A stretch of 58,523 nt of DNA, the filler included, from Sluysia triapertura (lineage: Eukaryota), in assembly GCA_046118255.1 (NCBI GenBank). It is 4 parts of 4 records of this genome, joined end to end, with 100 filler letters (N's around TTAATTAATTAA, not from the genome) between each part and the next. Parts side by side here need not be neighbours in the genome. Positions count along the whole stretch, not along the records: positions 13,861 to 30,036 come from JBJNIA010209368.1; 3 more parts are not named here. One strand, 5' to 3'. Below, one piece after another: positions 1-57,570 of the stretch (positions are counted from its first letter, which is position 1; every line of letters begins with the position of its first letter). Made by a program: the position numbers and the translations under genes. The notes under the pieces are model-generated. The model searched no databases, had not been told where the DNA came from, and was given only the letters and a program-made list of their open reading frames with translations.

Positions 1-1253
1 GTGCGAAAATAAGAACTTCATTTTATATTTATACTTACGAATAAGTATTTTATTTAAACATATTTAGATTGCAAAATAAATTAACATTATAACACAATAC
101 GTATTAAAACTATAAATATTGATTTAATGATTTACTGAAAGCAATTTGGAGGTGAATAATTTATTAAATCACAATTATTTATGGCTAATCAATAAAAGTT
201 GTAATATTTAATTTATGTTGCTTCATTGTAAATCCTAAGTTTTATAGTAGAGTTATAATTCAAAAATTGTAATTGTAAATGAAAAACTATATTAGAAGCT
301 TTCAAAAGTTAATCGAACTTTATGAATTAAAACTTTAGGTTTATGGCCTTTAATTATTGTAAACAAATTAACCAAAAAATAAAACCTTTATTCCAAAACA
401 AATAAAACACAACAAAATTGTTACATATAAATTTATGGAAGACTTTAATGTTATGTATAAATATCCGTATAATATAAATTATAGGATTTTTACTTAAAGT
501 GGAATAAATTTTTCTATCAACGTGAACAAGAGCGAATTCATATGTAGCAGGATTATGTAGAGGAATTTAAAAGGAAAAGTACATCATACTTGATGTCGAA
601 GGTTTTCTCTTTTGCTTTACTTGAATCTTTAAAATCCATTCGACAATCGAAGTAATTCTCTAAAATGTTTACAATCTCGAATGCCCTTTATATTTAGTTG
701 CATTAGCACTTAAAATATACTTTAATGAATTCATTTTTTAAAAAAAATTAAAGTAACACTTGGAGAAAAATTATTAAATAAATCGCACAAAGTTATTAAT
801 ATAGTATCACGATAGAAATCATGCGGTATCCAATTAAAACTACCGTATCTTATAACTGTAAAATATATAAATATGTTGTAAATACTAATTTGTAAAAACT
901 AATTTTTGTTTAAATATGTTGTAAATATTAATTTTGTTATATCGTGTAAATATTATTTTTGAAAATATTAATTGAATTACAAAACCATAAATAAAATTTT
1001 AATTAATAACGAACTTTAATAATTAATCCTTAAAATAGAATTTAAGATAAATATTTAAATTATTTTACGTCAAAATTTTTAAAACATTTACGAATTATGG
1101 TAAACATTTAATTTTAAATATATAATCGTATTTAATTCTAAAATTAGAAAAATTATAGAATAGGTTTACTTAAGAAATATATAAAAGAAAAGCCAAGTAA
1201 ATCTTTCTCACAATATTTTAATTAGTAAGCAGTTTAGTTGGACAAAAAGGCTC

Positions 1254-1392
1254 ATATTTTCGGAAATTTGGAGATATTAATAACGATTCGAATACATATA
1301 TTCATCTGTGAAGAACCACTAAGAAAGCTAATATTTTTGGAAATTTGGAGATATTAATAACGATCAGAATACAAATATTCATTTGGAAATTT
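1254..1392 (+). repeat. Tandem duplication of ~55-bp unit (period ~77 bp)
   Basis: GGAAATTTGGAGATATTAATAACGAT..GAATACA.ATATTCAT.TG occurs twice. Confidence 0.85.
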
Positions 1393-4148
1393 ATTCCAGT
1401 AGATAACTAAGTAAGCTTATTCATATTAAGTTTTCGGCATAAATATTTGCCTCAAAATCAGACTTACATTCTTTAATTATTTTTTAATAAACCCAAGGAT
1501 TACCCCTAGGTCAAATTGAATTCAAAATATTATTATACAATAATTATTCGTGTTATATAATTTTTCTTAAATTTGTTAATTTTCTTTTATTTTTGATATA
1601 ATAAACTTTTAGTTGTTGTAAAGTTCATTTTTATAAATCATAACATTAAAAAAATTGAATTGAATAAATAATATTAATAAGTTTAAATTAATTATTACGG
1701 ATTTATAAATAATCTTTCTGACAAAGTTTAAGAATCATTAGAAGTAACACACAATAATAATTAACATATTATTTGTTAGAGTCTAGTGACCCTCTCAGTT
1801 AAAGTTTCTTTTCAAATCCTACGAACGCGTCCTTAGTTTTTTAAGACAAAGCGCGTTACGTAGGTGCTTTATATTTTTTTAATCTAAGAAAGCGAACATA
1901 ATTATATCAAAGCCAATAATTTTATATTCGCATGCCTTATAATTAAAAGCATCTCTCAAATTTAATAAGTAAGTTAAATCAAAATCATAAGTACATGTAT
2001 AAACAATAATAATAAGAAGAAGCAAAGTAATGTAAAAAAAATTTTTATAAAACACATTGTCCCTATTACTGAAAGTGATGTAAAACAAAAATATAACTGA
2101 CAATACAATTAATAACGATAAATATACTGATTAATATATAAATGTACCTTATGTACTCAATATGCTCAACATAAGATAAAAATACACTGTTCATGGATAT
2201 TTTAAGACCAGAAGTCATACAATTTTTTAGAATTAAAAGTATTATTACAATTAAAATATGATATATCATATTTCAAACTTATATACTTTATAAATTGTAC
2301 AATATACATAAAAGTTAACTGATTAAAGTTATTAATAACGATAATATAAATAAAAGCTGGATAAATTTCAAGACAATAAGCCGGTGTTACTTCTTAACTT
2401 AACTTTTTTCTTTTGTTTTCATCAGAAGCTAATTTATTAAGAGTATTGATAATTTATTAATTAACTTTTTAAAATAATCTTTATAATCGTTAATTATAAA
2501 AATAAGTGAAATAATTAAAGCAATTAAAATAATAAAAAATAATTAAATAAAAATTAAACAAATCATAAAAACATACACTACACAGAATTTTAAGAATAAC
2601 ATTTAAACTTTTAATGTCAAAATTTAATTCATAATTTTATTTAAATTTTTTTATATAAGAATAAATTTATTAATAAAACTCTGCTTTAATTTAAAGAGTT
2701 ATCAAATTTTTAAATAAAATTAGTTAAATAGAAGAAATTAAATGCTTTTATTAATTGAATTTGTTTATAAATTTAATCTTTTGAAAACTTCTTTATGACA
2801 TGAAAATATTAATTATATTATAATCGACATAAAAATATAATTTTTGATATCCAAACAAAATGAAAAATACTTGAAATAAAAATAATAGCAGTAATAGAAC
2901 AATATTGACAGTGATAAAATGTGATTGACATTAAAATATATACACAAAGAGGAAAAATAATAACGAGAATTATAACAGTAATAATCAAAATAATATGGAT
3001 TTAGTAATTTGTTTATATAAGAACTGTTTATTTGTTTGTAATTATTATGAATTGATTTGGTGTTCAGTACAATTAAGTTCATTATTACCATTATAGTACA
3101 TTTTAATTGTAACCACAAAAATATTGAATACTAATTAATAACAAATGTTATCATACCAATCATTACTGCATGTATCAATATTAGAGTGTATAAAATATTG
3201 TGGAAAAAATAATTACATAAAAACTGTGCTTGTGTGCAAAACCATAAAAATAACATTATTTACATTTATTCAAGGTATTAAAAGTCGGTTTTAATTATGA
3301 TGTGGTTTTGCCTATCAGTGATTTCGACTGTGTTCCGAATCTTATCCAATTAAAGGCTCATCCACAAGATTTTAAGAAAAGGCAAACTTAACTATAAGTT
3401 ACATGTCTCAATCGGACAGATAGATGGTTTGCGTGATGTTAATAACTTAACAATTGGTTATATTATAATTTGATTATCCAATTAATATCTCAATTGAATT
3501 GAGTTAGAGTCTTTGACTCGTTAAATTTTTATATTTATTGAGTTATTTAAAATAGGACTTGAGAAAGCTTGGATTTATAAAACGTCTTAAAAATGTTTTG
3601 GAAAAATATCAATTTTATTAATTAAAAACTATGAAATTTAGAATCTCTTTGAATTTGCATTCTTCTTAAAATAGGACTTTGAAAGTTAACGCTAAAGTAA
3701 AAGTTTTGGGTAGAACAATGTTCTATGAATTTGCAGGCTTACTTAGAATAGCCTTTTTGAAAAAGTTCAATTATAATCAAAATTTAAGTTGATTTTAGTA
3801 CAGTAAGATGCGATATATGAATGAATAAACTTACTATGATTGAATAAATTTTTAATCAGTTAATCAACATTTTCTCCGAAAGAATATAAAATACATTTGT
3901 AAAGTGAATATCAAGGAAATTATGATTCCACTTCAATTAAAAAGTCGAATAGCGTTTGTGGTTGACTTACGCACTAAGAGAATTGATGATCGACAAAATT
4001 TCTCTATAGATCATGAGAGCACATATATTTTGTATAAAAGTTCTTATAAATATAAACCTAAATTAATTTGTACTTTACCATATTATTTAATATTTTAACA
4101 TATCATATTATTAAAATGTTTGAACTGCTACTAACATTAATTTATTAA

Positions 4149-6008: not shown

Positions 6009-9000
6009 GTAATAATACTGCTAATAATTAATTATAATCGTAATAATAATCAAAAATATTATATCATTTATTAAAACAGACATTAAAAAATTTTCTACAT
6101 AAAAATTATAAAGTTATGAATACATTCAATAAAACTTGGTCCTCCAGTTGTAAATTAATAAATAATAAAATAATTATAATTAATAAAATAAATGAAATTC
6201 TAAGCCTATATATCATTATAAAACATTATGTTAGTTCAAGTTATCACATAAGTTCATAGCATTAGTCTTATGAGGAATAGAGAAAACTATTAACTACAGC
6301 ATGGGCTATGGCATCAGGTTTCGTAGTGAACTTACAAAACATGACCAAAATGACATGCAATAAGATGATGTCAATAATTATGAATTGATATAGCCAATTT
6401 TTAAAAAATATAACCAAATAATACGAACAAGACAGATAAAATTCAGTACATAAAGAAGTGAAATTTGTTTCACTCACAATTTAGAAGATCACAAGTTGAA
6501 CTGAACAATTATTTGATTGAAACTATTATTTTGATAAAGTTAACATTTGGTTTGTATGAGTTGTCATAACAAAATAAAGATTAAAAGTTGTAATTAAAAA
6601 AATTTTAAAATTTAATTGAAAACAAATATTTATATTCCTGCTTTTGAATTAAAATAAATTATTTTATAAGGTTTTATATTAATGTAAATTTTCAAAATAA
6701 TTATTGATAATTATTAAATTTTCATAATTATTAATTATTATTTTTCGAGTTAAGTAAGTAAAGTTAAAAAACGTTTGTAGACATATTTAGTTAAAAAGAG
6801 AAATGATCATAACTTTACATTTTATTTGTACCGTTATAATTAATTTAAAATTTAAACTTTTGTAATAGTAGGGTGCATTGAAGCATTATTTGCTGTACCT
6901 CGTATATTTTGTATTGCATCTATAGTTTTGTCTAATAATCTTTCAAATTTATCATTAGAATTGTCATTATACATTTTGGTAACACGTACATTTTAACACA
7001 CATTTTATGCTATTTATAAATTTTTATTTTGGTAATCAATAATAAATCAATAATATACATAATTTATATTAACAATTTATATAATTTGAACTTTGATATA
7101 ATAATCTAAGTTTATTTTTTCAATGTAATTTTATTTTATTTTAATAATTTTATAAATTTGAATTACGAACCTTAACAATAATACTTTAATCTTTAAAATT
7201 ACAAATTTTTAAAAAATTACAAATATTTTTATTTGTTTTAATTGACATACGTTGTCAAAAAACAATATGAATAACACGACATAAAATAATACGACTCAAG
7301 TGACTTGTCTTAACATAGAAATTTCTTTTTCAATGTAGTTCCACGAGCATTCATTATTCGAGATTTGAGTTTCATTCTTCGACAATAACAATATATTTAA
7401 AAGAGTCACGTTAGTCAATTTTATTATAAGTTTAATTAGATTAAATAGATGTAAAATATACTTAAACTATTGATCATACGTTTCCCTTCAACCATTTAAC
7501 GAGTTGAAGTAAAAAATATTTTTAAAATACAGATTAAAGAAAATTAATACTTTAAAGTACAATTTAGTAAAATTTATATCATTATATTTTATAACTGCTC
7601 GATTTCTCTATAAAAATCAACAATTATGAATAATTTTTAAATGAATGTGTCCGTCTATATATTGTGGTTTTGTCTGAACGAGGACGCAATTACAGATGTT
7701 CACTAAGATTAATTTGAAGCTTTCTTAAAAACAAAACGAATTTTCTTACTATAAATGTTATATGAACTTTACAGAAATGTGACAAAATTCTAGAATTATT
7801 TAATTTCAATTTACCTTAACTATTCAGTTGACTTATCTAACAAATTTCCTCTTCAAATTCTTTATGTAATTTCTTTTTCTTTAATCGGTCTCTCTAAAAT
7901 TCCTTACGTTCTTACTATAATTCTTTTATTAAAATTCCTTTAAAGTTATTAATATAATATATTAATAATATCGATATAACTTATATTAATATAATATAAT
8001 TCTTCCAAACTTTTTTACTTTTTAAATCCCTTTTAAGCTCTAAACTGAAATTTTCTTATTTTATGATTATTACGTAAATATAAAAATCGCATTAATTAAA
8101 TTTAAATAAATTTTGTTATTTAACTTTTAAATTAAATTTATTTATTTATGAAATTAAAACTATTTATTTTACCCTAACCAATTATTTTTTAAAAATATTT
8201 ATACAATAATATTTAATTTTACAAAATATTATAATTATTATCAAAATTTTATACAAAAATAATTTATACGAATTTTTTATAAAGTAATATAAAATAATAT
8301 TCACATAATTCTATCAAGTATTTGATTTTTGTATTGTCATTATATATAGTTTTTAACTTACACAAATTATTCTTTCCCATCATTTGCGAAAATTATAAAT
8401 TTACATAGCTATAAAATCAAATCAAAATCATTGACGATTTTTAATAATAATAAAATAAAAAAATTGCAGATTGTTCCTCGGATATCTGACGAAAATTATA
8501 TAGTTATAATCTGTCACTGCAAGAAGACAGGAAATAAATCTTGACACCACTGCATTAGTTCTTTAAGCTTTATTAGCAACATTCTTTTATATAACCTCCA
8601 ATTAGCTATTTTATACGCCACTTACGTATTAGCCCTTAAGTGAGTAAGCCTAATATTGTAAGGGATTCACGTAAAATCTAAAATCTAAATAAACGATTTA
8701 GCAAAATTCTAATTTCTAATATTTATCACATTTAAATTTACACCTTCACAGAATAGAACAGCATAAATAAGTTTAAGTTCCAACAGATTCTTGAATAATA
8801 AACCTATTTAAACTTGTAGTATGCATCAAGAAATATATTTACGTATCCCGTTATAGGGATTTGTGTTATATGGGGACTCCCGCATAACGCGGTAAATATC
8901 GCATTATGAGAATTTTCGATATTGAAGAATATTTTAGTCATTTAACATCAAGACTGGCTTTTTATGTTTATTCAAATGGGTTAAATTTTTGGATAATTTT

Positions 9001-10849: not shown

Positions 10850-11820
10850 ATACCCTTGAAATAAAATTATTGTTACTGATTACAAAACAAATTTAATATG
10901 CATGTTGAGACTGCCCAAACCTTGAACAGGAGATAAGTAAGAAACATTTAGAATTACAAAATGAAGGAAGAATGCCAGAATGTGATGGAGAGAACATTAT
11001 AAACATTATTGGTACGAGAATGAAGATATCCACAGTAATGATGAGAGCTGAAGAATGCATTGGAGTTCCAAAGACCTTTATTAAGTATTGAGATCTTGTG
11101 AAGGTTTCAAGTAGGTTTGAAAAATGCGATATTTAAGGTACTTTTGTTTTTTTTTACATTAGAATCATCTAAGACCTCATTAGTCTTTGAAACCTCGATA
11201 AGCGTTTAAGTAACCTTATAAAATATTTGAGAAATAAAATAATTGTTACTAATATTCAAGATAAGTTTGATATTTTTAATAACTAACGTAAAGAATTAGA
11301 AAAAAGAAAAATATCTAGAATCCTGAATACCTTATAAACTACTAAATAATTTTAGAACCTTAATAAAACCTTTAAACATAAAATAAGATCAAGTCTAAAA
11401 ATAGAATAATTAATTAAAATCTTAATTAATTTAATTAAGAAAAAGTCCGTTTTGTGAATAACTTTTGAATGCGGAATGCTATGTTAAATTTGAAATATGC
11501 ATGTATTTGTTTTAAAAAGACCTTTCGAATTCATGCAAGGAAAGCCTTAATATTGAGAAAAGTCAAATTTTAATTAATCCTTAATTATGGAATGTTGAAT
11601 TTTTATACTTACAATTATGAAAATATAATGAATCCTAAACATTTTCGATAAGAAAATTTGGTGTAAAAAACCGAAATCAATTAAATTCTAATAACAAAAA
11701 TTAGATTCATTATTTTATATATATGTTAACAGTAATATTGATTGTTATTTTAATGTGAGAATTTAAGTAAAAGTAGATTGATTAAAGTAAAGGAAAATAA
11801 AAGATGATCATAAATCAAAT
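10850..11820 (+). repeat. Long dispersed repeat; inverted homolog at about 46460-47600
   Basis: CATGCAAG(G/A)AAAGCCTTAA(T/G)ATTGAG(A/T)AAAGTCAAATTTTAATTAA and other blocks are shared with the reverse complement of 46.5-47.2 kb. Boundaries approximate. Confidence 0.75.
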
Positions 11821-13760: not shown

Positions 13761-13860
13761 NNNNNNNNNNNNNNNNNNNNNNNNNNNNNNNNNNNNNNNN
13801 NNNNTTAATTAATTAANNNNNNNNNNNNNNNNNNNNNNNNNNNNNNNNNNNNNNNNNNNN
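13761..13860. other. Artificial contig-joining spacer (44 N + TTAATTAATTAA + 44 N)
   Basis: Identical 100-nt layout at three places; the 12-mer gives stop codons in all frames. Confidence 0.97.
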
Positions 13861-20728: not shown

Positions 20729-21949
20729 AATGAGTGCTACAAACTAAAATAAGTTTGTCTTGACTAACCACTTGTTCATTTGCAGTAGAGGTTGCATGTA
20801 TATAATCATATGTAGGCACTAATGTAAATGATCGAAAATATTAATTTATATAATTCGAATGTTTCCTTATCATGAACATTTAAATTTGTTTGGTTTATTA
20901 CTAGTAGAAGTTCATGCTGTGATGCAACTGCGCTAGATGATACAACAAACATTGCTATTTCATAAACTACAAAATAAGATTCCATTTCAAATTTACTAAT
21001 ACTCATTAAATTAAATAAGAATACGTTAACTTATTCAACTGAAAATGTCTGTAAAAATTGTAAATTTTTAGAAAAGTTTTTCCATATTGTAGCACAGAGC
21101 TGAAAAACTCACAAATGCCTTTAAAGAATTTTAATTTTGCAATTTTAAAGAATTTGTAATTTTAGAGAATTTATTTTCGTGTTCTGTTTAAGAACATATG
21201 AGACTATTGACAAAGGTTTTTTGATCACGACGAATCAGTAAGTAAATTTTAAAAATGAACTCCATAAAATGATATTGTGATTTAGTAAGACTTCAATCTA
21301 TAAAAAAATCAAAAACTATTTTTTAATTGTCATTATAAATAAAATAAACAAAATGTCTCGTTTTCTCTTATTTCGAGGATGAGCATGTATAAATTGCATC
21401 TTTGAACGCATAATAAATCATGTCAATTCCACGAACTATAATAATTCAATGTTTTAGTTACTAATACTAATATTTACCTTTTCACATTCATTGGCATGTT
21501 TTTAAAAATAAGCGATATTATGTTATTTCAATTATCATTTGAAATTGCACAAAAACATATTTCAAAATATTTAAAATAAACAAAATATTTCACTTCACAC
21601 TGAAAATATAAAATAAAAATATAAATCGCATTTAAACATCAAAACTCCTAAAAACCTAAAATCAAACAGAAATTAAATAACAATAAAACACTCCTAACTT
21701 TTCTCAACTTTCTATCATCATTTCTAACTCACATGTTATTTTTTTACTCTTTTTAATACTTTTAATAACTGAAAATTTGTTGACGAACAATATGGTGATC
21801 ACTGGTATGGTCAGGACAACTACACGTACAATGTAGCATTTCAAAATCCCAAGTCAGAATTATCGGTAATACAAAAATGCCACAACACAAGAAATACGAC
21901 AGAAATATTGATTATTAAGTGCTACATTTTATCCAAACAAAGTAGCTGA

Positions 21950-22365
21950 ATAATTTAAATGAAACAATCGATTCTTATCGATGTGATTTACAAACTAGTC
22001 GTGAGGAATTAAAATTGGTAATTTCCCAAATAGAACAACTGAAAATCGTTTACGAAAAAGAACAATTGATTCTTCAACATGAGTACAAATTAAAACAGTG
22101 TCATAAACACGAATTAAACATGATCAATAGAATCCAATCAGAAATTTATCGAATCAGAAATTTTGCGTAACCACAAGAATTTAAAAGCGAAATCAGTAAT
22201 TTGAAACAAAAACTAGACTTGTTGAATCATTTGGATGGATTTAACGAAAATATGAAAGATTATTTGAAGAAAAAGCAAGAAAATATTAAATCTAATAAGA
22301 ATATGTTGGAAAAGCAACAAGAAATTATCTGCAAGAAATGTGTGAGAATAAAGCTACTTGAAAGA
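21950..22365 (+). pseudogene. Decayed coiled-coil ORF (retroelement ORF1/gag-like?)
   Basis: E/K/Q/L-rich frames (ISQIEQLKIVYEKEQLILQHEYKLKQ; ISNLKQKLDLLNHL...MKDYLKKKQE) broken by stops. Confidence 0.4.
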
Positions 22366-23260
22366 TAAGTGGTGAGTCCACCAACGTATTGGGCTTACCA
22401 ATTTAATGGTCAACCGTTGGATTTAAAACTATTTATCAAAAATCTAATTTAACAATCTATTGCTTTGATATTTTAGGAGGTCTTTTTATTTTTAGATTTT
22501 AAGAATTTTAATTAGTTTAAAAAAAATATAATTGAGAGAGTTTAATGAGATTCGCTTATACGAACCTTTTAATTTTAATATTTTAATTAGGTTCAATTTA
22601 TTTTAAGATGATTCGCAAAGGAACCAATACTTGATTTAATTGATTTTAAATGTTACAACACAGGTTTAAAAATGAAAATTTTATTAATTGCAAAAACGTA
22701 TATGGTACACATGATAATAAAATAATATAATATTAAAATAGATTATTTTGTAAATAATCTGGATAAAATAATTTTTGTGAAATAGTTTAATACGCTATCG
22801 ATAAATGATAGCGGCAAGGTTCAAAATATATTTTGAGTGTTATTTTAGAGATGAAATATTATAAATTGCTAATAAACTTACAGAAAAAACTAACGAGAAT
22901 AATATGAAAATGATCCAAAAAATTTCCTTGAGTAAATGTTGAATTGTGCAACCGTCTAGCAAAAGCCCTTCCAAATTAAGAATTAAACACTTGAGAAGAT
23001 TACAAAAAACTTGCAAAGAAAAATTTTGTGTAAGAAACGCTTAAGTATGAAGCCTTTTATAGATATTTTAAATGTCCTTGAAGTTATTTTTAGTCATTTG
23101 GATAACAAGATAAGTAAAACAAAAATAATTTTAGTTGATAATTTTAATAATATTTACAAATTTTTAAAATTAATTTTAATAATAATATTTACAATAATTT
23201 TTATAAATAATTTTTTAAAACAATATCAAAATATTAACCTGGATGACGATAAATAAATTA
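22330..23260 (+). repeat. Long dispersed repeat; inverted homolog at about 56530-57570
   Basis: Colinear shared blocks: GTGAGTCCA..CCGTTGGATTT, GATTC(G/T)CAAAGGAACC, AATGTCCTTG, AACCTGGA(T/A)GACGAT. Confidence 0.75.
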
Positions 23261-23612
23261 TAAATTATTTCCAAATTACTGATTTAAATTCCAAAATATT
23301 ATAAATTAATAAATTTTCCAAATTAATAATTTAGTAATTAAAATAAATTATCACTTTAAAAATGAATATAGTCTAATTTAAACTTTAGTATTATGCTAAA
23401 CTTGATGTATATTTAATGTGCTAAACTTTGATAGTGTACAAAACTTTGATCTTGATATAATCTTGATATATTCTACATATCACTGAACAACATTATCGAC
23501 TTAACGAGTTAACGTGAATTTAACGATTTAAAAGTTTTATTAGATAAATATTAGATAAAGGCCTAAAGTGCCATGTATAAATATTGACTATAATAAAATA
23601 AAATTGTTAGAT

Positions 23613-23669
23613 GATGCTGGGAGCTCAGTGGGTAGAGGTCCCGGGTTTGATCCCCGGTCAGTCCATTTT
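23613..23669 (+). pseudogene. Internally deleted tRNA-derived (tRNA-Ala-like) sequence / SINE head
   Basis: A-box AGCTCAGTGGGTAGAG joined directly to GTCCCGGGTTTGATCCCCGG (B-box/T-arm), then TCAGTCCA and TTTT. The anticodon arm is missing. Confidence 0.7.
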
Positions 23670-30036: not shown

Positions 30037-30136
30037 NNNNNNNNNNNNNNNNNNNNNNNNNNNNNNNNNNNNNNNNNNNNTTAATTAATTAANNNNNNNN
30101 NNNNNNNNNNNNNNNNNNNNNNNNNNNNNNNNNNNN
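30037..30136. other. Artificial contig-joining spacer
   Basis: 44 N + TTAATTAATTAA + 44 N. Confidence 0.97.
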
Positions 30137-31523: not shown

Positions 31524-31590
31524 ATTGACTATAATAAAATAAAATTGTTAGATGGGTTGATAACTCAGTGGTCAGTCCATTTTATGAAGT
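31524..31590 (+). repeat. Second, more deleted copy of the tRNA-containing repeat
   Basis: Same 5' flank ATTGACTATAATAAAATAAAATTGTTAGATG and 3' GGTCAGTCCATTTTATGAAGT as 23583-23676. Confidence 0.75.
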
Positions 31591-39720: not shown

Positions 39721-40354
39721 GATAATTCATAAGTTTTCAACATTCAATCATACTTTCAGTCAAAGCATTTTAAAGCCATAATTTTACCACATTTCACAAT
39801 ATTATTTATACTATTAGGCAAAAGAAATAATATGTTAAGAAAGTAGATTAAATTAAAAGGAAGGCTCATGCATTTTAAATTATCACAAATACTCTACATA
39901 ATTTTATTATCATTATTGAAATTATCGTTATTGTTATTATTTGGCCAGCATTTTCAATTACATTTAATTATGCACTCTGTCACCAATCGGCAGCAATCTA
40001 ATTAAATTAATTTACTGTTTCGTTTAAACTGTTGATTGATGACAGATTCCAAGTTAATTTGCTTGTCACCATTTAACTATCTTAACTCTTTAGTAGTATG
40101 GTGACAAGCATGCATTGATGCAATCATGTTTATGTTGTATGACAATTGATTGGATGTCCAATCAAGTCCATCTCATCACTGCAGTTCTATCTATTGGGAT
40201 TACTCATCCAATCAGTGTAATCCACCTTTTTAATAATGGTAAGTGAAATATTGATTTTTATAGCACTATTTATCATTTATAAAGAATTAACGGCTGATCT
40301 TATTAAATATTTACTATATTCCGTATTTAAGTGTAAAGGATAAATAAATGAAAA

Positions 40355-40816
40355 TTGTTTTTACACGATATGTCTACGATAACAGAAAACTTATCAAAAA
40401 TTAGTGGATCCTTTTTATTTGAACCGCAAGACTATGTTGAACTTAGTAAAGTCGAAATTCAATTTATATTTGATGTGTTAATTTATGTTAATGAAACTAG
40501 TACACCAGAAGAAATTTTAGATTGTAATTCAGTTCTACGGCTTAGATTCCTTAAGAAGCTGTCTGAACAGAATGATAGCTATGATTTTGAAATTTCGTTA
40601 AAGTTATGTATAGACAGAACAATCAATATGGTATCATTCCCAATTCTTATGGATGAATTATTTAGTCATATTTGTATTTCTTATGAAACTGGATATGTTG
40701 GCAAAGATTTTCTTGATATCAATAGAAAAATATTGAATCGAATTAAGATTGAAATTGAAAAAGATGAAGAAGCTATGTTATTAAAAGATTATTTAAATTA
40801 TTTAAAATGTAATTAA
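40355..40816 (+). CDS. Intronless orphan ORF, 153 aa, acidic/helical (first ATG near 40370)
   Basis: Unusually long open frame with protein-like composition for this AT content. A second short ATG frame follows at about 40833. Family not recognised. Confidence 0.5.
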   Translation: MFLHDMSTITENLSKISGSFLFEPQDYVELSKVEIQFIFDVLIYVNETSTPEEILDCNSVLRLRFLKKLSEQNDSYDFEISLKLCIDRTINMVSFPILMDELFSHICISYETGYVGKDFLDINRKILNRIKIEIEKDEEAMLLKDYLNYLKCN

Positions 40817-41336
40817 TATTAAAACTACATATAATGAGTGTAACAGCAAATGTCAAAGCGGAACACAACAGAATGTGGCTAGAAGAATACAAAACTGTTT
40901 TCAGAATTTTGAACGATCAAAAGAAATCAAACCAGGCAGTAATCTTAATGAATACTTAAGTAAAACTCTTCAAAAGTCTCATTTATTAGGAAAATTTTGA
41001 TCATACTTAATTTAGACTTACCTGATGATTTAAAGTATTTTAAGTCATTTAATATTGATATATATGACGTAGGAATAAAAATTGCTTTTCAATTTTTAAT
41101 GTGCTGATTTATTTGAAACTATATGAAAATGTGGCGTTAAAACCCAAGTTTAAAACGATTTTTGTTACTGTATTATTTTTTCTACGTAATCAGTATAAAA
41201 TAATATATAAAATAATAGCTCAATTAATTATCAACAATATAGTTAATTTAAAAACTTTTTGGTGATTTTGTCATTAATGTACGCAGCGTGATTAGTAAAA
41301 ATTTGTGGAATTTTAAATTAAAAAATACATTACTAA

Positions 41337-41680
41337 ATATCTCACGAGAAATATAAAAATTTAAACAGTTTTGACGATGATTATAATTATGAAGATTATT
41401 ATGACGACGATGATCATCATCTAACTCATATGCATGGTGATTTATCAAATGATAGTAGATTGAGAAAGAATCGTTATAGTCAATCAGAAAGAAAGCGAAA
41501 AGTTAGTATTAAAAGTAGTTATAGAGAATTACGTGAGGATATTCCAACTTTGAGGGATAATGAGGGATCGCCTTCACTTATGTTGCAAAAAGCTGTTGAA
41601 TAAGTAAAGGAAATAAACATGTTAATTTAGAAAATAAATACTGTGCAATGGAGCAACAACTACAATATTTGTTGTTACCA
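41337..41680 (+). pseudogene. Max-like bHLH-leucine zipper, disrupted
   Basis: Acidic leader (FDDDYNYEDYYDDDD), then RKNRYSQSERKRKVSIKSSYRELREDIPTLRDNEGSPSLMLQKAVE*VKE, then after a frameshift NLENKYCAMEQQLQYL. Compare Max [50 protein letters not shown]...LEQQVRAL. TAA at 41601 replaces the conserved Tyr. Confidence 0.8.
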
Positions 41681-41840
41681 ACAATGTATACTGATATTAG
41701 CAAGGCAGTGGTTTTACCAGCTGGTTCTAGTTCAAATAACACTCACGGTGTTGTGCTAAACTGTAATACAAACGCCTAATATTTCCACAGGACCAATTAG
41801 TAATAATCAAGTTTTATCGGTTACTGCTACTCATCCAGGA

Positions 41841-42167
41841 TTGGGTTGTGTGACAAATGATGATAAGCACGCAAGTTATTTTTCGAATCGAAAAAGTCAT
41901 CATTATTCTCGTAGAAAGTTTAATGAAAAAGAAGATGATAATAAATCACGTCTTTTTAAATCCACATTATGTATGTATGAAACTTCGATAACAGGCCAAT
42001 GCATCAAGAATGGAAAATTTTGTCCCTCTGCTCACGGATTATATGAATTAGTACCAATTCCTGGTGTCAAATCAATCAATCTTTTGTGCTCACAAATTGA
42101 TGAATCAGAAATTAACTTAACAACACAAAAATACTTTGACAACAAAACTTTTTTAAAGTTCAAATGA
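41841..42167 (+). pseudogene. ZFP36/TIS11-type CCCH zinc-finger ORF (single finger), probably the 3' part of the Max-like frame
   Basis: RLFKSTLCMYETSITGQCIKNGKFCPSAHGLYEL is C-x9-C-x6-C-x3-H with a lead-in and AHG..EL tail like RYKTELC...CQFAHGLGEL. The finger lies at 41970-42035. Confidence 0.75.
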
Positions 42168-43470: not shown

Positions 43471-43803
43471 ATAAAAATTCTACATAGGTACATATTTTAA
43501 ATTTATTACATACATTTTAATATAGTTACAAATTATACAACAAATTTATTACAGTTTACAATTATTAATGAATTTTTACAAATATTAGTAATAAATTTTG
43601 ATACAATTCATATTAAAAAATTTTAATGAGTTTTAATACATATGGTTTATGGAATAACAATTTTAATAAGATCGGTTATATTATTGGAACAGTATGCTTA
43701 ATTTAAACTGATTATAATCGAAAGACTCATTAAATTATTTATATCATGACGAATTGATTATTTCGTCGGTATCCGTAATTATGATTACATTAACTTCTAT
43801 CAA

Positions 43804-44408
43804 AATTTACTTAGCACAATCAATAACGTAATTAATAGTTGCATAAAAAATAATAATCATTTAATAATAGTAATATCAATAATGAGCATATATTGACTTT
43901 CTTAATATATTCTTTAATATTGATATTTCGGTAACACAATATCTTTCATAATCTGTGTAACAATCATATAACATGTTCTTTTAATTATATATAAATTTAT
44001 GAGGTCTAAAATACAACATAAATTGTATTACCAAAAGTGTAAATATGAATTATATCGATAATGGTACAATAAATTAATTGTACGTTTTTTCATTTAATTT
44101 ATAATTTATTCGTTTGGATCTTTTATTGATAGTTCATTAAAATTGTTTGAAATACTAAATGAAGTAATGTGACTTTCTGAACCAATTTCACCAATAAATT
44201 ATCTTAATTAGGTTTCAATTAGGTTCACTAAATATAAGATCTGTGATTTCGAGTTTGGCGGTCGAACTAGTTTGTAAAATCTAGATTTGCACTACCATTT
44301 AATGTAATACATAAACTTTATACTCGAATTTATTAATAAATGGCTTTCTCGAAAATCTACGTTGAGTATATATCGTCCTAGCATGTATGAATTTAAGATG
44401 AAAATATT
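43804..44408 (+). repeat. ~600-bp direct repeat, copy A
   Basis: Near-identical blocks with 45093-45786, e.g. AATTTATTCGTTTGGATCTTTTATTGATAG and TTTGGCGGTCGAACTAG. Confidence 0.92.
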
Positions 44409-45092
44409 GCTAAAAGAGAAATTAACCTATAATTCGATAAAACTAATTAATGTTTTATAAATATTTGAGTTGTAAGTAGTACGTTGTGCCTCTGTATTTT
44501 AGTTCATTGTTTTTTAAATATTATTAAGTGCTTTAAAATACAATAGGCATTAAATTAGTTTAAGTTTAGTTTCTTTACAATGTTACTTTTTAACTTGTTT
44601 GTGATTGGAAGGACGAAAGTATACATTTTGTTTCACTTAATTCACTAGGATGTATGTAATAAATTTAATGTATACATATGTAAACACATACGTAGTACTG
44701 CGCACTACAGGCACTTGTATGGCAAATAAGGTGTTTTTGAATTCTTTTCTCTAATAATTTTTCCTTTAGTTAATTTCTATTATATGGGCAATTTCTTTCT
44801 ATAGTTACGATGAAGTTTCTACTAATGAAAGAAATCTATGATCATAAATGGAAAACTTAACTTAATGAGTTCGCTCTTTCACAAATCTTACAGTAAATGA
44901 TTTGTCGATATGATTTGCAATGTTACAGTTTCATGACAAAGATGGAGCGAAAATAATATGTAGTAGAGTTACAGTAAAGACATAGCTCGAAATTAGTTTA
45001 TAATTTTCAAAGTCTTTCGTCTATATTAATTCAACGGTGACCAGACTTTAATTTTCTTTATAAAATGAGGTATTACATTAATTTCTATTATT

Positions 45093-45786
45093 AATTTACT
45101 TACCACATAATCAATAACGTAATTAATAGTTGCATAATTAATTATAATATAAAAAATAATAATCATATAATAATAGTAACATTAATAATGAGAATATTGC
45201 TTTTATTAATATATTTTTTAATATTGATATTTTATTTACACTTTCGATAACACATCTTTCATAATCTGTATAACATCATACAGCGTGCTATGTATATAAA
45301 TTTATGAAGTCTAAAATGCAACAGAAATTGTATTACCAAAAATGTAAATATCAATTGGAATATCAAACATTACAAAATGTATCGATAATGGTATAGAAAA
45401 TTAATTGTACATTTCTTCATTTAATTTTTAATTTATTCGTTTGGATCTTTTATTGATAGTTCATTAAAATTGTTTGAAATCCTAAATGAAGTAATGTGAC
45501 TTTCTGAACCAATTTCACCAATAAATTATCTTAATTAGGTTTCAATTGCATTTGCGATGGCTTCCGATGGCTTCTGTCACTTCTATGAATGTTTTTTGTT
45601 CTCTAAATATAAGAACTGTGATTTCGAATTTGGCGGTCGAACTAGTTTGTAGAATCTAGATTTGCACTACTATTTAATGTAATGCATAAACTTTATACTC
45701 GAATTTATTAACAAATGGCTTTCTCGAAAATCTACGTTGAGTATAATATGTTGTCCTAACATGTGTGAATTTAAGATTAAAATATT
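45093..45786 (+). repeat. ~600-bp direct repeat, copy B (with small insertions)
   Basis: Matches copy A, with extra sequence at about 45548-45602. Confidence 0.92.
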
Positions 45787-46043: not shown

Positions 46044-46143
46044 NNNNNNNNNNNNNNNNNNNNNNNNNNNNNNNNNNNNNNNNNNNNTTAATTAATTAAN
46101 NNNNNNNNNNNNNNNNNNNNNNNNNNNNNNNNNNNNNNNNNNN
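46044..46143. other. Artificial contig-joining spacer
   Basis: 44 N + TTAATTAATTAA + 44 N. Confidence 0.97.
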
Positions 46144-47600
46144 AAAAATTATAGTTAAAGATTTACATTTAGTATATTTAAAGTCTTATTGAGCTTCAGT
46201 TTTAAGGCACCAAGCAAGATTATCATTTAATAGTTCACGATCCATTTTTTTGTGCATCAATACTTAAAGCAAATAATTAAACTCCAGAATTAGGGTATTA
46301 GACAAGGTTAACACTTAAATAAGTTAAATATCTACTTTAAAATCCAACGGCTGGCCCTCACTGGTAAGTCCAGTACGTTGGTGAACTCACATTAAAACTC
46401 TTTATTCTATTCTTTATAATTCTCACAATAGTAGTACTTATTAAACTTTATTATAGTAATTTGAATATTGATCAACCATTATTTTCCTCCTAAATTACTT
46501 CTCACAATTAGATAACAATCATTACTATTAATAACATATGTAGAAATAATGAATTTAACATTAGTTTTTTGAATTCAATTAATTTTCAGTTATTGACACT
46601 CAATTTTCTAATGGAAATTGTTTAAGATTCTTATTCTCAAATACATCAATCTTAAAACATGTTATATTAATTTCTAGATTCTCCACTTTCATAGCAATAA
46701 TCTCATATTCAATTCAAAAGATGAAAATTGTACTTTTTAGAGTTAATTAAAATTTGACTTTACTCAATCTTAAGGCTTTTCTTGCATGGACTCGGTCAAA
46801 CATTTCTTCATCGAAAGATCTCACCTAAATAATTGCATGCACAATTACAGCTTTGTCATACCACTCCACATTCAAATGTACTTTTATTAATTAGTTAATT
46901 AAAATTTTAATTAATTAATCTATTTTAAGCTTAAAGGTTCTAATAAGGTTCTAATGTTGTTCGGTACTTTATAAAGCATTCAGGGGTTTCTAGGTGCCTT
47001 CATCTTCACCACTCCGATTCCTTTTTCTATCAAATTTATCTTTAATATTGGTAACGATATTTTTATTTAACAAATATTTTCAAGATTTCAAAAACTTTAT
47101 AAGCTCATCAAGGTTTCAAAGATTCTTAAAGATTGATGCGATTTTCAATAGTTTCAAGGTTCATAGTCAAAGAGAAATTTAATGCTTCAAAACGTTATCA
47201 AACTAATCGCAAATGTTATCAAGGGTGACAACACTTCACAAAGGTCTTCCTCAAGCCTCAGAATAACTGTATATATTTTCATCCTCATAATTTGTTCTTA
47301 AGCAATGTCTAATTACGTTTTTTGAATTATTTTTTCAACAGCATAATTATTCCAACAAAAAATGATCGTGTACTAATATATTGAATGACTACAAAGTATT
47401 TTCATCTATTTAAAACATAAAATATTTTAGAGTCAGAATTCTGCTGTATTTAATAAAGACAAATCCATTTCGAGTTGAAAATTTAGTTTATGTTTGAAAA
47501 GTATTGTTAGTTATAAATGTTACATGAACAAAAACAATCACACTTTCTAACAATGTCATCACAACATTGGAGAGAAGATGGAATAGTCTCAGCAACGAGT
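46144..47600 (-). repeat. Long dispersed repeat (homolog of 10.85-11.8 kb; also carries the GTGAGT motif)
   Basis: Block similarity as above; motif at 46340-46390. Confidence 0.7.
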
Positions 47601-47992: not shown

Positions 47993-48199
47993 ATCTTTCA
48001 TGTTAAATCCAGTTATTTTTTCAATTGTTTCCGGAAGACGCTCCATAATTTCCAATATCTCATGCGTTAATTTTGATGCTCCAACTTTTCCGGAACCAGA
48101 TGAAATCATAGAAATTTCGTCACACTGGGACAAAGGTGCTGCTACTTCAGCAGCCAATTGTGGAAGCATTTCTAAGAATAAATTCAATCTGGCAGCTTC
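47993..48199 (-). CDS. FLOT1: Flotillin-1, C-terminal coding exon (207 nt, phase 0/0)
   Basis: ttttag|GAA...GAT|gtaagt encodes EAARLNLFLEMLPQLAAEVAAPLSQCDEISMISSGSGKVGASKLTHEILEIMERLPETIEKITGFNMKD. This matches the flotillin-1 tail (LPQVAxEVAAPL...SSGSG..GAxKLTGE..I...LPE.VE..TG). I did not find the upstream exons in 48200-58523. Confidence 0.93.
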
Positions 48200-56529: not shown

Positions 56530-57570
56530 AAATTTAATCATCATCGTCTTCCAGGTTAGAATTTTATTATTTTGATTATAGAATTTTATTATTTTGATTA
56601 ATATTATATTATTAAAATTAATAGAAAAATTATAAATATTAGATCTAAATTACTAAAATCGTTAATATTATTAAAATTAATATTAGATTAGATTTAAAAA
56701 TTGTAAATATTAAATTATTTTTATTTGTTTTAATTTCCAAGGACATTGCAAATAAGTATAAATAGACCTTACATTAGCTTACACTTCACAACAATAATTT
56801 TTATTTTCTAAGTTTGTCAAATTTGCGATATTTTTGCCAAGTTCACAATATTCTTCTAAGTGCACCAAGATCAGTTCTTCAATCCTTCATCGCTGTGGAA
56901 ACAATTTTACAATTCTTCAGAATTTTCTATTGTCGTTAGTTTTTAGTTATAAGTTTGACGCAATTTTTAAGATTGCCTGTATAAAATCAACTTAAATTAT
57001 ATTTTAATTAACTGGCTATCCTTTATAGATAGCAGAGAAAAATCATATTTTAAACTTATATTGAGATTATTAATAGAATAATCTTCTGTAAAATATAATT
57101 TTTATTTTTCTCATACCATTTATATCAAATTTATATAATTTTTATACCATTTTGTATTGAATTTATATAATACCATTTGTATTAAATTTTATATTAATAA
57201 AACTTCTTTGTTTAACTATTTGTGTCTATTGATCAGGTTCCTTTGAGAATCTAAGTAAAATCTTTAACAGGTTCATTTACACTGAACCTTAGTAAACTAT
57301 CTAATTTTTTGAAAAAAGGTTTGTATATTCAAACCTAAGAAAAATCATTTTTATTATTTTTTAAAAAATTCTTAAAATCATTATTAAAATCATAAATTGC
57401 CTCTTAAAATATTGAATTTATTAAACTATTAAATTATTAAATTACTAACCTCCATTTTTTAAACTAAAAAATCCAACGGTTGGCCATTAGGTTAGTAAGC
57501 CCAATACGTTGATGGACTCACATAAGTTTTTAAGTTTTATTCGCATACTCACACACAAATCTTGCAGTAT
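56530..57570 (-). repeat. Inverted homolog of 22330-23260
   Basis: Same blocks in reverse-complement order. Confidence 0.75.

Follow-up and report, generated by a model that had tools for sequence, protein, structure and literature searches.

A predicted compact double-pseudoknot RNA motif of putative mobile repeats in Sluysia triapertura, possibly self-cleaving

The stretch of Sluysia triapertura DNA analyzed here (assembly GCA_046118255.1; 58,523 nucleotides, hereafter the window) carries a recurrent motif that is best read as a previously undescribed, compact double-pseudoknot RNA of mobile repeats. The existence of a conserved fold is very probable. By analogy with the ribozymes of retroelements, we favor the view, to which we assign a probability of roughly 0.35, that the motif is a high-copy RNA module of these repeats and most likely self-cleaving. 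The more specific proposal of a new small ribozyme class, modeled as a 49-nt double pseudoknot of HDV-like dimensions but with other wiring and present in thousands of copies, is rather unlikely and is put forward tentatively.

The window has a GC content of about 23% and consists of four contigs joined by linkers at 13761-13860, 30037-30136 and 46044-46143, each a 12-letter sequence, carrying stops in every frame, between two runs of 44 N. The flank behind member 2 ends at a linker after about 200 nt. All motif alignments comprise the following five members within the 58.5-kb window:

22372..22424, plus strand: member 1, the reference on which the P1, P2 and P3 helix map is drawn
46340..46390, minus strand: member 2, with a loop 2 nt shorter and C-G instead of U-A as the first P3 pair
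57469..57521, minus strand: member 3, of the same repeat family as member 1
8618..8670, minus strand: member 4, absent from the initial annotation; divergent, with GTGAAT replacing GTGAGT
1814..1872, minus strand: member 5, likewise absent from the initial annotation; P3 re-lettered, P1 formed by ATAAAGC/GCTTTGT, and an additional 4-bp loop hairpin

Members 1 to 3 correspond to the three copies that the initial annotation had claimed. Their positions and strands are all correct, and for these three the earlier account of the 9-bp stem 1, of stem 2 and of the 14-16-nt spacer holds; the copies are real, but their number is too low, since the window holds at least five members. The 27-nt 5' part of the motif gives three matches at 0 mismatches versus 0.00 expected from 100 shuffles. 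Member 4 was found by a fuzzy search, at 8670 on the minus strand, and displays four double-sided changes in P2 and P3, while one P1 pair and two P2 pairs are mismatched. A pairing descriptor derived from copies 1-4 returned four matches, namely members 1, 3 and 5 and a tRNA-like repeat, while two shuffles returned 0 and 0. Member 5 was also recovered by a covariance model with a rough E value of 0.069; matches 6-12 of that model (E 1.9-5) are noise. Because it was built on member 1 alone, a search with two 10-nt arms of member 1 constitutes an independent test: member 5 scores 18/20, a value that 0/300 shuffled windows reach (best 17). Loosening the descriptor (P1 at least 5/6) yields five matches versus 0.3 expected, a result that is not independent because the loosening followed the recognition of member 5. 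A scan for the topology free of letters finds members 1, 2, 3 and 5, and is unselective, with 2.1 matches per shuffled window.

The predicted fold consists of three helices, P1, P2 and P3, whose strands are distributed along member 1 (plus strand) as follows:

22372-22377, plus strand: P1a
22378-22379, plus strand: CC
22381-22386, plus strand: P2a
22387-22388, plus strand: unpaired UA
22389-22392, plus strand: P3a
22393-22398, plus strand: P1b
22399-22407, plus strand: loop with URA
22408-22409, plus strand: GG
22410-22413, plus strand: P3b
22415-22420, plus strand: P2b
22421-22424, plus strand: AUUU

Numbered from 22372, P1 comprises positions 1-6/22-27, P2 10-15/44-49 and P3 18-21/39-42, with a possible P1.1 at 7-8/37-38. 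P1 (6 bp), P2 (4-6 bp) and P3 (4 bp) can form in all five members. The motif spans 49-59 nt, of which the helix set takes up 49 nt and 18 bp. P1.1, a 2-bp C-G helix, is possible in members 1-4 and shows no double-sided change. The internal loop is fixed at 2x1, the loop letters URA-x-GR are conserved, and invariant unpaired positions number only about six. The same order of strands (P1a, loop, split second stem, P1b, loop, second-stem partners) is found in the SAM-II riboswitch of bacterial leaders, whose U-rich L1 engages in major-groove triples with U-A pairs (PMC3303485, in excerpt), whereas the motif has a C-rich linker of 1-3 nt and resides in an animal repeat.

P3, the stem missed by the initial annotation, is 4/4 paired in all five members and carries part of the covariation. 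With P3 included, 69 of 72 cells are paired in members 1-4 and five double-sided pair changes are seen, versus 0-1/500 shuffles, for a structure model drawn from the same sequences that score its covariation. All five changes are located in P2 and P3, four of them originating from member 4. Shifting the model by 1-3 columns leaves 0-2 double-sided changes, and the earlier 9-bp stem-1 model has three, a number equalled in 19/500 shuffles. Member 5 adds one such change in P2, three in P3 and two in P1. Among members 1-4, P1 is nearly invariant, with 0 double-sided changes, and thus provides no evidence either way on its pairing. In member 5, it is paired 6/6 (7/7 with the extra pair) at the same place, directly after P3a, an arrangement that flank composition alone would produce in about 2% of cases. 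C8 stays C in member 4 although position 20 changes, which favors a C8-G37 pair over the C8-G20 pair proposed previously. The alternative hairpin ATTGG/CCAAT does covary between copies 1 and 2, as had been claimed, but it is broken in copies 3 and 4; its T>C change is compensated by an A>G 24 places on, within P3.

Cells with G-U pairs outnumber those with A-C by 11 to 2, and the GC skew is positive on the motif strand in 9/10 flanks. Taken together, the excess of G-U and the G-rich motif strand point to an RNA on the motif strand, and transcription would proceed from this strand. The claim of a strand-specific, pseudoknot-type RNA structure beyond protein coding thus gains support from the covariation and the G-U bias.

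A weak helix P4 (CUUA/URAK) of 3-4 bp can be drawn in all five members and is mutually exclusive with P1 in members 1-4. In an idealised helix, a straight stack of P1, P3 and P2 would need to bridge about 25 A with a linker of 1-3 nt. Such a stack being impossible, either P2 packs beside the junction of P1, P1.1 and P3, or the RNA alternates between the pseudoknot and a long hairpin with CUUA/URAK as its closing helix. Our model envisages the former, in which P1, P1.1 and P3 would form a three-way junction free of gaps, with P2 lying alongside. When only nested pairs are allowed, members 1 and 3 fold into two hairpins (-18 and -19 kcal/mol) and members 2, 4 and 5 into the long hairpin. A 3' hairpin that has 10 bp in member 1, where it belongs to the optimal nested fold, and 7 bp in member 3 was discarded, as it is absent from members 2, 4 and 5. 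Folded as DNA, the motif strand has z-scores of -1.9 to -2.7.

The five members occupy four unrelated sequence contexts. Members 1 and 3 are the sole pair with common flanks; the other nine of ten pairs show no flank similarity above shuffle level within 1.5 kb. The features surrounding member 1 are:

22329..22371, plus strand: upstream segment of about 45 nt common to members 1 and 3, the left edge of their repeat family
22425..23540, plus strand: decayed AT-rich repeat body, matching 57468 down to about 56250 on the minus strand
21946..22365, plus strand: decayed coiled-coil-like reading frame, interrupted by one stop; its end lies 6 nt ahead of member 1

The repeat body shares more than 1 kb downstream of the two members, with identity in 505/657 alignment columns over its first 700 nt. 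Between members 1 and 3 the motif itself is more strongly conserved than this flank (48/53 positions, p=0.024), a sign of constraint. It also keeps a hairpin, GCTATC/GATAGC, at 22793-22813 (plus strand) and 57015-57033 (minus strand), 420-490 nt downstream of the motif; no homologue was found for the decayed Cys-rich frame that follows this hairpin. The coiled-coil-like frame is absent from member 3, and its last part (22300-22320) is at single-copy depth. A search with this frame (X at stops) revealed no homologue, with Atlas scores below 0.9, and a helical match to it was dismissed as chance. Pfam searches of 79 of the 95 ORFs of at least 60 aa and of the six frames of 46.5-58.5 kb revealed no reverse transcriptase, endonuclease, integrase or transposase domain; apart from a CCCH finger they returned weak noise alone. 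The large retroelement suggested initially is only a candidate carrier.

Depth was taken from the one sequencing run that contains this DNA, which is in contig form, is not on record as RNA and is a possible origin of the window itself; 641 of its contigs cover 22300-22500. Summed contig depth, which is inflated by overlapping short contigs and does not equal copy number, amounts to 16 in the single-copy flank at 22300-22320 and 1,100-3,600 at 22328-22362, with a step from 47 to 1144 at 22328. It then reaches 113,000-246,000 over 22370-22418, with sharp edges, and falls past the motif to 7,700 at 22426 and 630 at 22500. Loose contig ends concentrate at 22372 (13 contigs) and at 22424/22425 (27 contigs); no joints were seen in the contigs over 22300-22500. 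The sole motif variant listed in them is 22393 G>A, at 34% of the depth, by which a G-U pair in P1 becomes A-U. Far commoner than either flank, the motif forms a discrete module. Its copies in the genome may plausibly number in the thousands (compare five per 58.5 kb in the window), and several families of mobile repeats would carry it.

Other features lie at a distance from the members or touch them only by position. GC-rich mirror-image words at 8830-8900 (minus strand) form a twin hairpin some 160-230 nt upstream of member 4. A diverged repeat (65-78%) is present at 11184-11761 (plus strand) and 46499-47122 (minus strand); the latter ends about 110 nt before member 2, and the other copy is without the motif. 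A flotillin-1 exon with ordinary TTTTAG and GTAAGT ends is located at 47993-48199 (minus strand), with member 2 lying 1.6 kb downstream on the same strand; its best relatives are 55-58% identical, the named ones being from arthropods. An Unkempt-type CCCH finger exon (PF25427, E 3.4e-10) at 41760-42164 (plus strand) follows open frames at 40352-41600, with no motif member near. These two exons mark the host as a divergent invertebrate. The window further includes a direct duplication of about 650 nt with 78% identity (43784-44408 and 45072-45786, plus strand), and a tRNA-like (SINE-like) repeat with A- and B-box-like words at 23583-23660 (plus strand), partially copied at 31524-31571 (plus strand), where ARAGORN calls no tRNA.

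A search of Rfam, which includes the twister, twister-sister, pistol and hatchet classes, returned for the whole window at E of at most 1 one weak unrelated match elsewhere and none on the motif; local scans of members 1 and 4 at E of at most 10 gave only weak sRNA, snoRNA and miRNA matches far below gathering scores. The hammerhead core, CUGANGA and GAAA around three stems, was found in 0/10 strand-regions (within 120-180 nt, both strands), and no twister words were found at the motif. The SECIS pattern (RUGAN/KGA quartet, helix II of 9-13 bp, AAR loop) likewise occurs in 0/10 strand-regions. Searches at the motif for SL RNA or an Sm site, telomeric repeats and target duplications were negative. 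A viral collection, with few animal genomes covered, gave 0 matches; a looser pattern of the 5' half had six, none of them with the 3' half. Metagenomes, prokaryote genomes and phages (blastn) gave 0 matches each, in collections that contain few animal genomes and reveal little about other animals. No description of such a motif in flatworm or other repeats was found in the open-access literature. Judged from these comparisons, the motif appears to belong to no known ribozyme family, which speaks against the ribozyme reading. New natural classes of self-cleaving ribozymes are rare and have mostly been found in bacteria or metagenomes.

The wiring of the motif differs from that of HDV-like ribozymes. 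HDV-like ribozymes nest a P3-L3 hairpin between P2a and P1b, with P1.1 formed from L3; none of the five members has this hairpin. In place of the roughly 13 nt of HDV they have 5-6 nt, which pair with the 3' strand corresponding to J4/2. The helix sizes of minimal HDV-like ribozymes, and in part the P3-L3/P1.1 feature list, are general background to this comparison. Also unlike HDV-like ribozymes, the motif has CC directly after P1a. The strand equivalent to J4/2 begins with U, C, C, C and G in members 1-5, so that the motif does not keep throughout the catalytic C which is invariant at the first J4/2 position of HDV-like ribozymes (PMC10879173, in excerpt). With this wiring, the motif may work like an HDV-like ribozyme rather than be one. 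The likeness to the HDV-like ribozymes of R2, RTE and L1Tc and to the minimal/theta forms (PMC6765202 and PMC10879173, in excerpt) extends to a length of about 50 nt, a possible double pseudoknot, a P1 of 6-7 bp at the 5' edge, a C-G helix of 1-2 bp, a short P3, an optional loop hairpin, high copy within repeats, varied flanks and free sequence drift. HDV-like ribozymes are described as nested double pseudoknots with minimal forms that lack P4 (PMC10879173, in excerpt). Hammerheads of Penelope-like elements, retrozymes and Schistosoma SINEs resemble the motif as small structured RNAs in many invertebrate repeat copies (PMC6765202, in excerpt), but have another topology; Naiad elements are described in an excerpt of PMC8557442 as being without canonical hammerheads.

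Base pairing rather than protein appears to be what is conserved. A short peptide, or slower decay of a GC-rich patch, as the cause of conservation is largely refuted and highly improbable: members 1 and 3 do read alike in one frame, and the excess of motif identity over flank identity between them (48/53 versus 505/657) is modest (p=0.024), but the proposed frame has one stop in copy 3, two stops in copy 4 and a 2-nt deletion in copy 2, which leaves it broken in members 2-4, with double-sided changes on both sides of the stops, and the flanks are unrelated in nine of the ten member pairs. A second frame (ES.NVLGL.. to the loop TAA) looked conserved and was rejected, as stops lie just upstream in four of the five members and member 2 is frameshifted; the URA of the loop would be accounted for equally well by P4 or tertiary contacts. 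The stop-start TAATG is limited to members 1 and 3 and opens 6-7 codons. Recoding, in which the pseudoknot would let ribosomes pass from a coiled-coil ORF1 into a second ORF by -1 frameshifting or by reading through a stop, is very unlikely as well. Its attraction is that members 1-3 could adopt an H-type geometry in which stem 1 has 9 bp and that, at member 1, the pseudoknot comes directly after a coiled-coil-like frame, as in some Penelope-like elements drawn with an ORF1, a frameshift and a pseudoknot (PMC8557442, in excerpt). Unlike these, the motif has no slippery site or downstream reverse transcriptase, and the frame arrangement is not seen at other members. Members 1-4 have no X XXY YYZ heptamer within 30 nt; in member 5 an A7 run adjoins P1, and a stop follows it. 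Stops occur in all three frames near each member, member 2 has an indel of 2 nt and member 5 one of 6 nt, and the members share no second open frame; these observations do not support the recoding role suggested earlier. Quite unlikely, too, is a splice-donor switch in which P1 would hide GUGAGU from U1 and the long P2-P3-P4 hairpin would free it. The mutual exclusion of P1 and P4 in members 1-4 and the strain on a straight stack suit such a switch, and a precedent for a 3' site is provided by influenza A segment 7, where about 60 nt alternate between pseudoknot and hairpin with a splice-like word in a helix (PMC3369869, in excerpt). That system, however, concerns a 3' site in a virus, and the donor-like word of the motif is lost in two of the five members: GTGAGT is present in three, member 4 has GTGAAT after C, and member 5 has neither GTGAGT nor CTTAC, yet keeps stem 1, without a donor on either strand. 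G precedes GT in only one of members 1-4, P1 has no double-sided change among these, and the alignment of members 1 and 3 reveals no conserved acceptor downstream. A mirror version is conceivable, as GTAAGY on the opposite strand is invariant in members 1-4 and followed by an acceptor-like TGCAG 70-73 nt on (GTAAGC/TGCAG at 22329-22398, minus strand, and 57495-57567, plus strand, with TGCAG coinciding with the left boundary of the repeat that members 1 and 3 share); that the same dyad yields an equally good donor on the other strand also counts against the switch. Members 4 and 5 thus deprive the splice-site reading of its basis, although a subfamily might conceivably be under such control, and the resemblance to U1 pairing, taken initially as the purpose of the motif, is probably incidental. 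It cautions that a GTGAGT/ACUUAC pair can mimic U1 pairing by coincidence.

The remaining alternatives accept the structure and differ in what reads it. A signal at the level of DNA, that is, a single-strand hairpin or dyad recognized by some DNA-binding protein such as a rolling-circle (Helitron-type) transposase, is improbable. P2 and P3 form a hairpin on either strand and the DNA folding scores given above are favorable, but the bias of G-U over A-C and the pseudoknot partner kept in member 5 argue against it, as does the internal position of the motif in the member 1/3 family, where homology continues beyond both motif sides. No CTRR-type end, terminal inverted repeat or target duplication of at least 4 letters was found, and a check for a Helitron 3' end or MITE revealed no direct repeat of at least 4 letters at the edges of any of the five members. 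A non-catalytic role of the same RNA fold is possible, if somewhat doubtful: it could be a handle for an element or host protein, common to several repeat families that are thereby mobilised or stabilised, and could act as a reverse-transcriptase or packaging signal, an export signal or a block to 5'-3' decay. The depth plateau and all of the covariation and structural evidence are compatible with this model; the R2 protein binds a 5' pseudoknot (PMC6765202, in excerpt), and a place 45 nt inside the member 1/3 family suits a handle better than an end. On the other hand, the searches of the window revealed no partner protein or autonomous element, and the tight tertiary core to which the gap-free junction and the fixed 2x1 loop point would suit a ribozyme equally.

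Self-cleavage remains our preferred reading. The motif RNA is predicted to act as a compact double pseudoknot whose pairs are kept while the letters change. It would cut its own transcript at or near the 5' edge of the motif and so free, from read-through transcripts, element RNAs with defined ends, as HDV-like and hammerhead ribozymes do in retroelements. P1 starts at the sharp 5' edge of the depth plateau. The element edge of the member 1/3 family, however, is not at the first P1 base because about 45 nt upstream are shared, which argues against a 5'-end cutter. Retroelement ribozymes are described in hundreds of copies, with sequence that varies upstream of them and is conserved downstream, and small pseudoknotted RNAs at high copy in unrelated repeats are self-cleaving ribozymes, some of them also protein-binding sites or IRES (PMC6765202, in excerpt). 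With a candidate of about 50 nt and natural compensatory variants, self-cleavage is directly testable. Even without cleavage, a fold at such density across unrelated repeats would be a shared cis signal.
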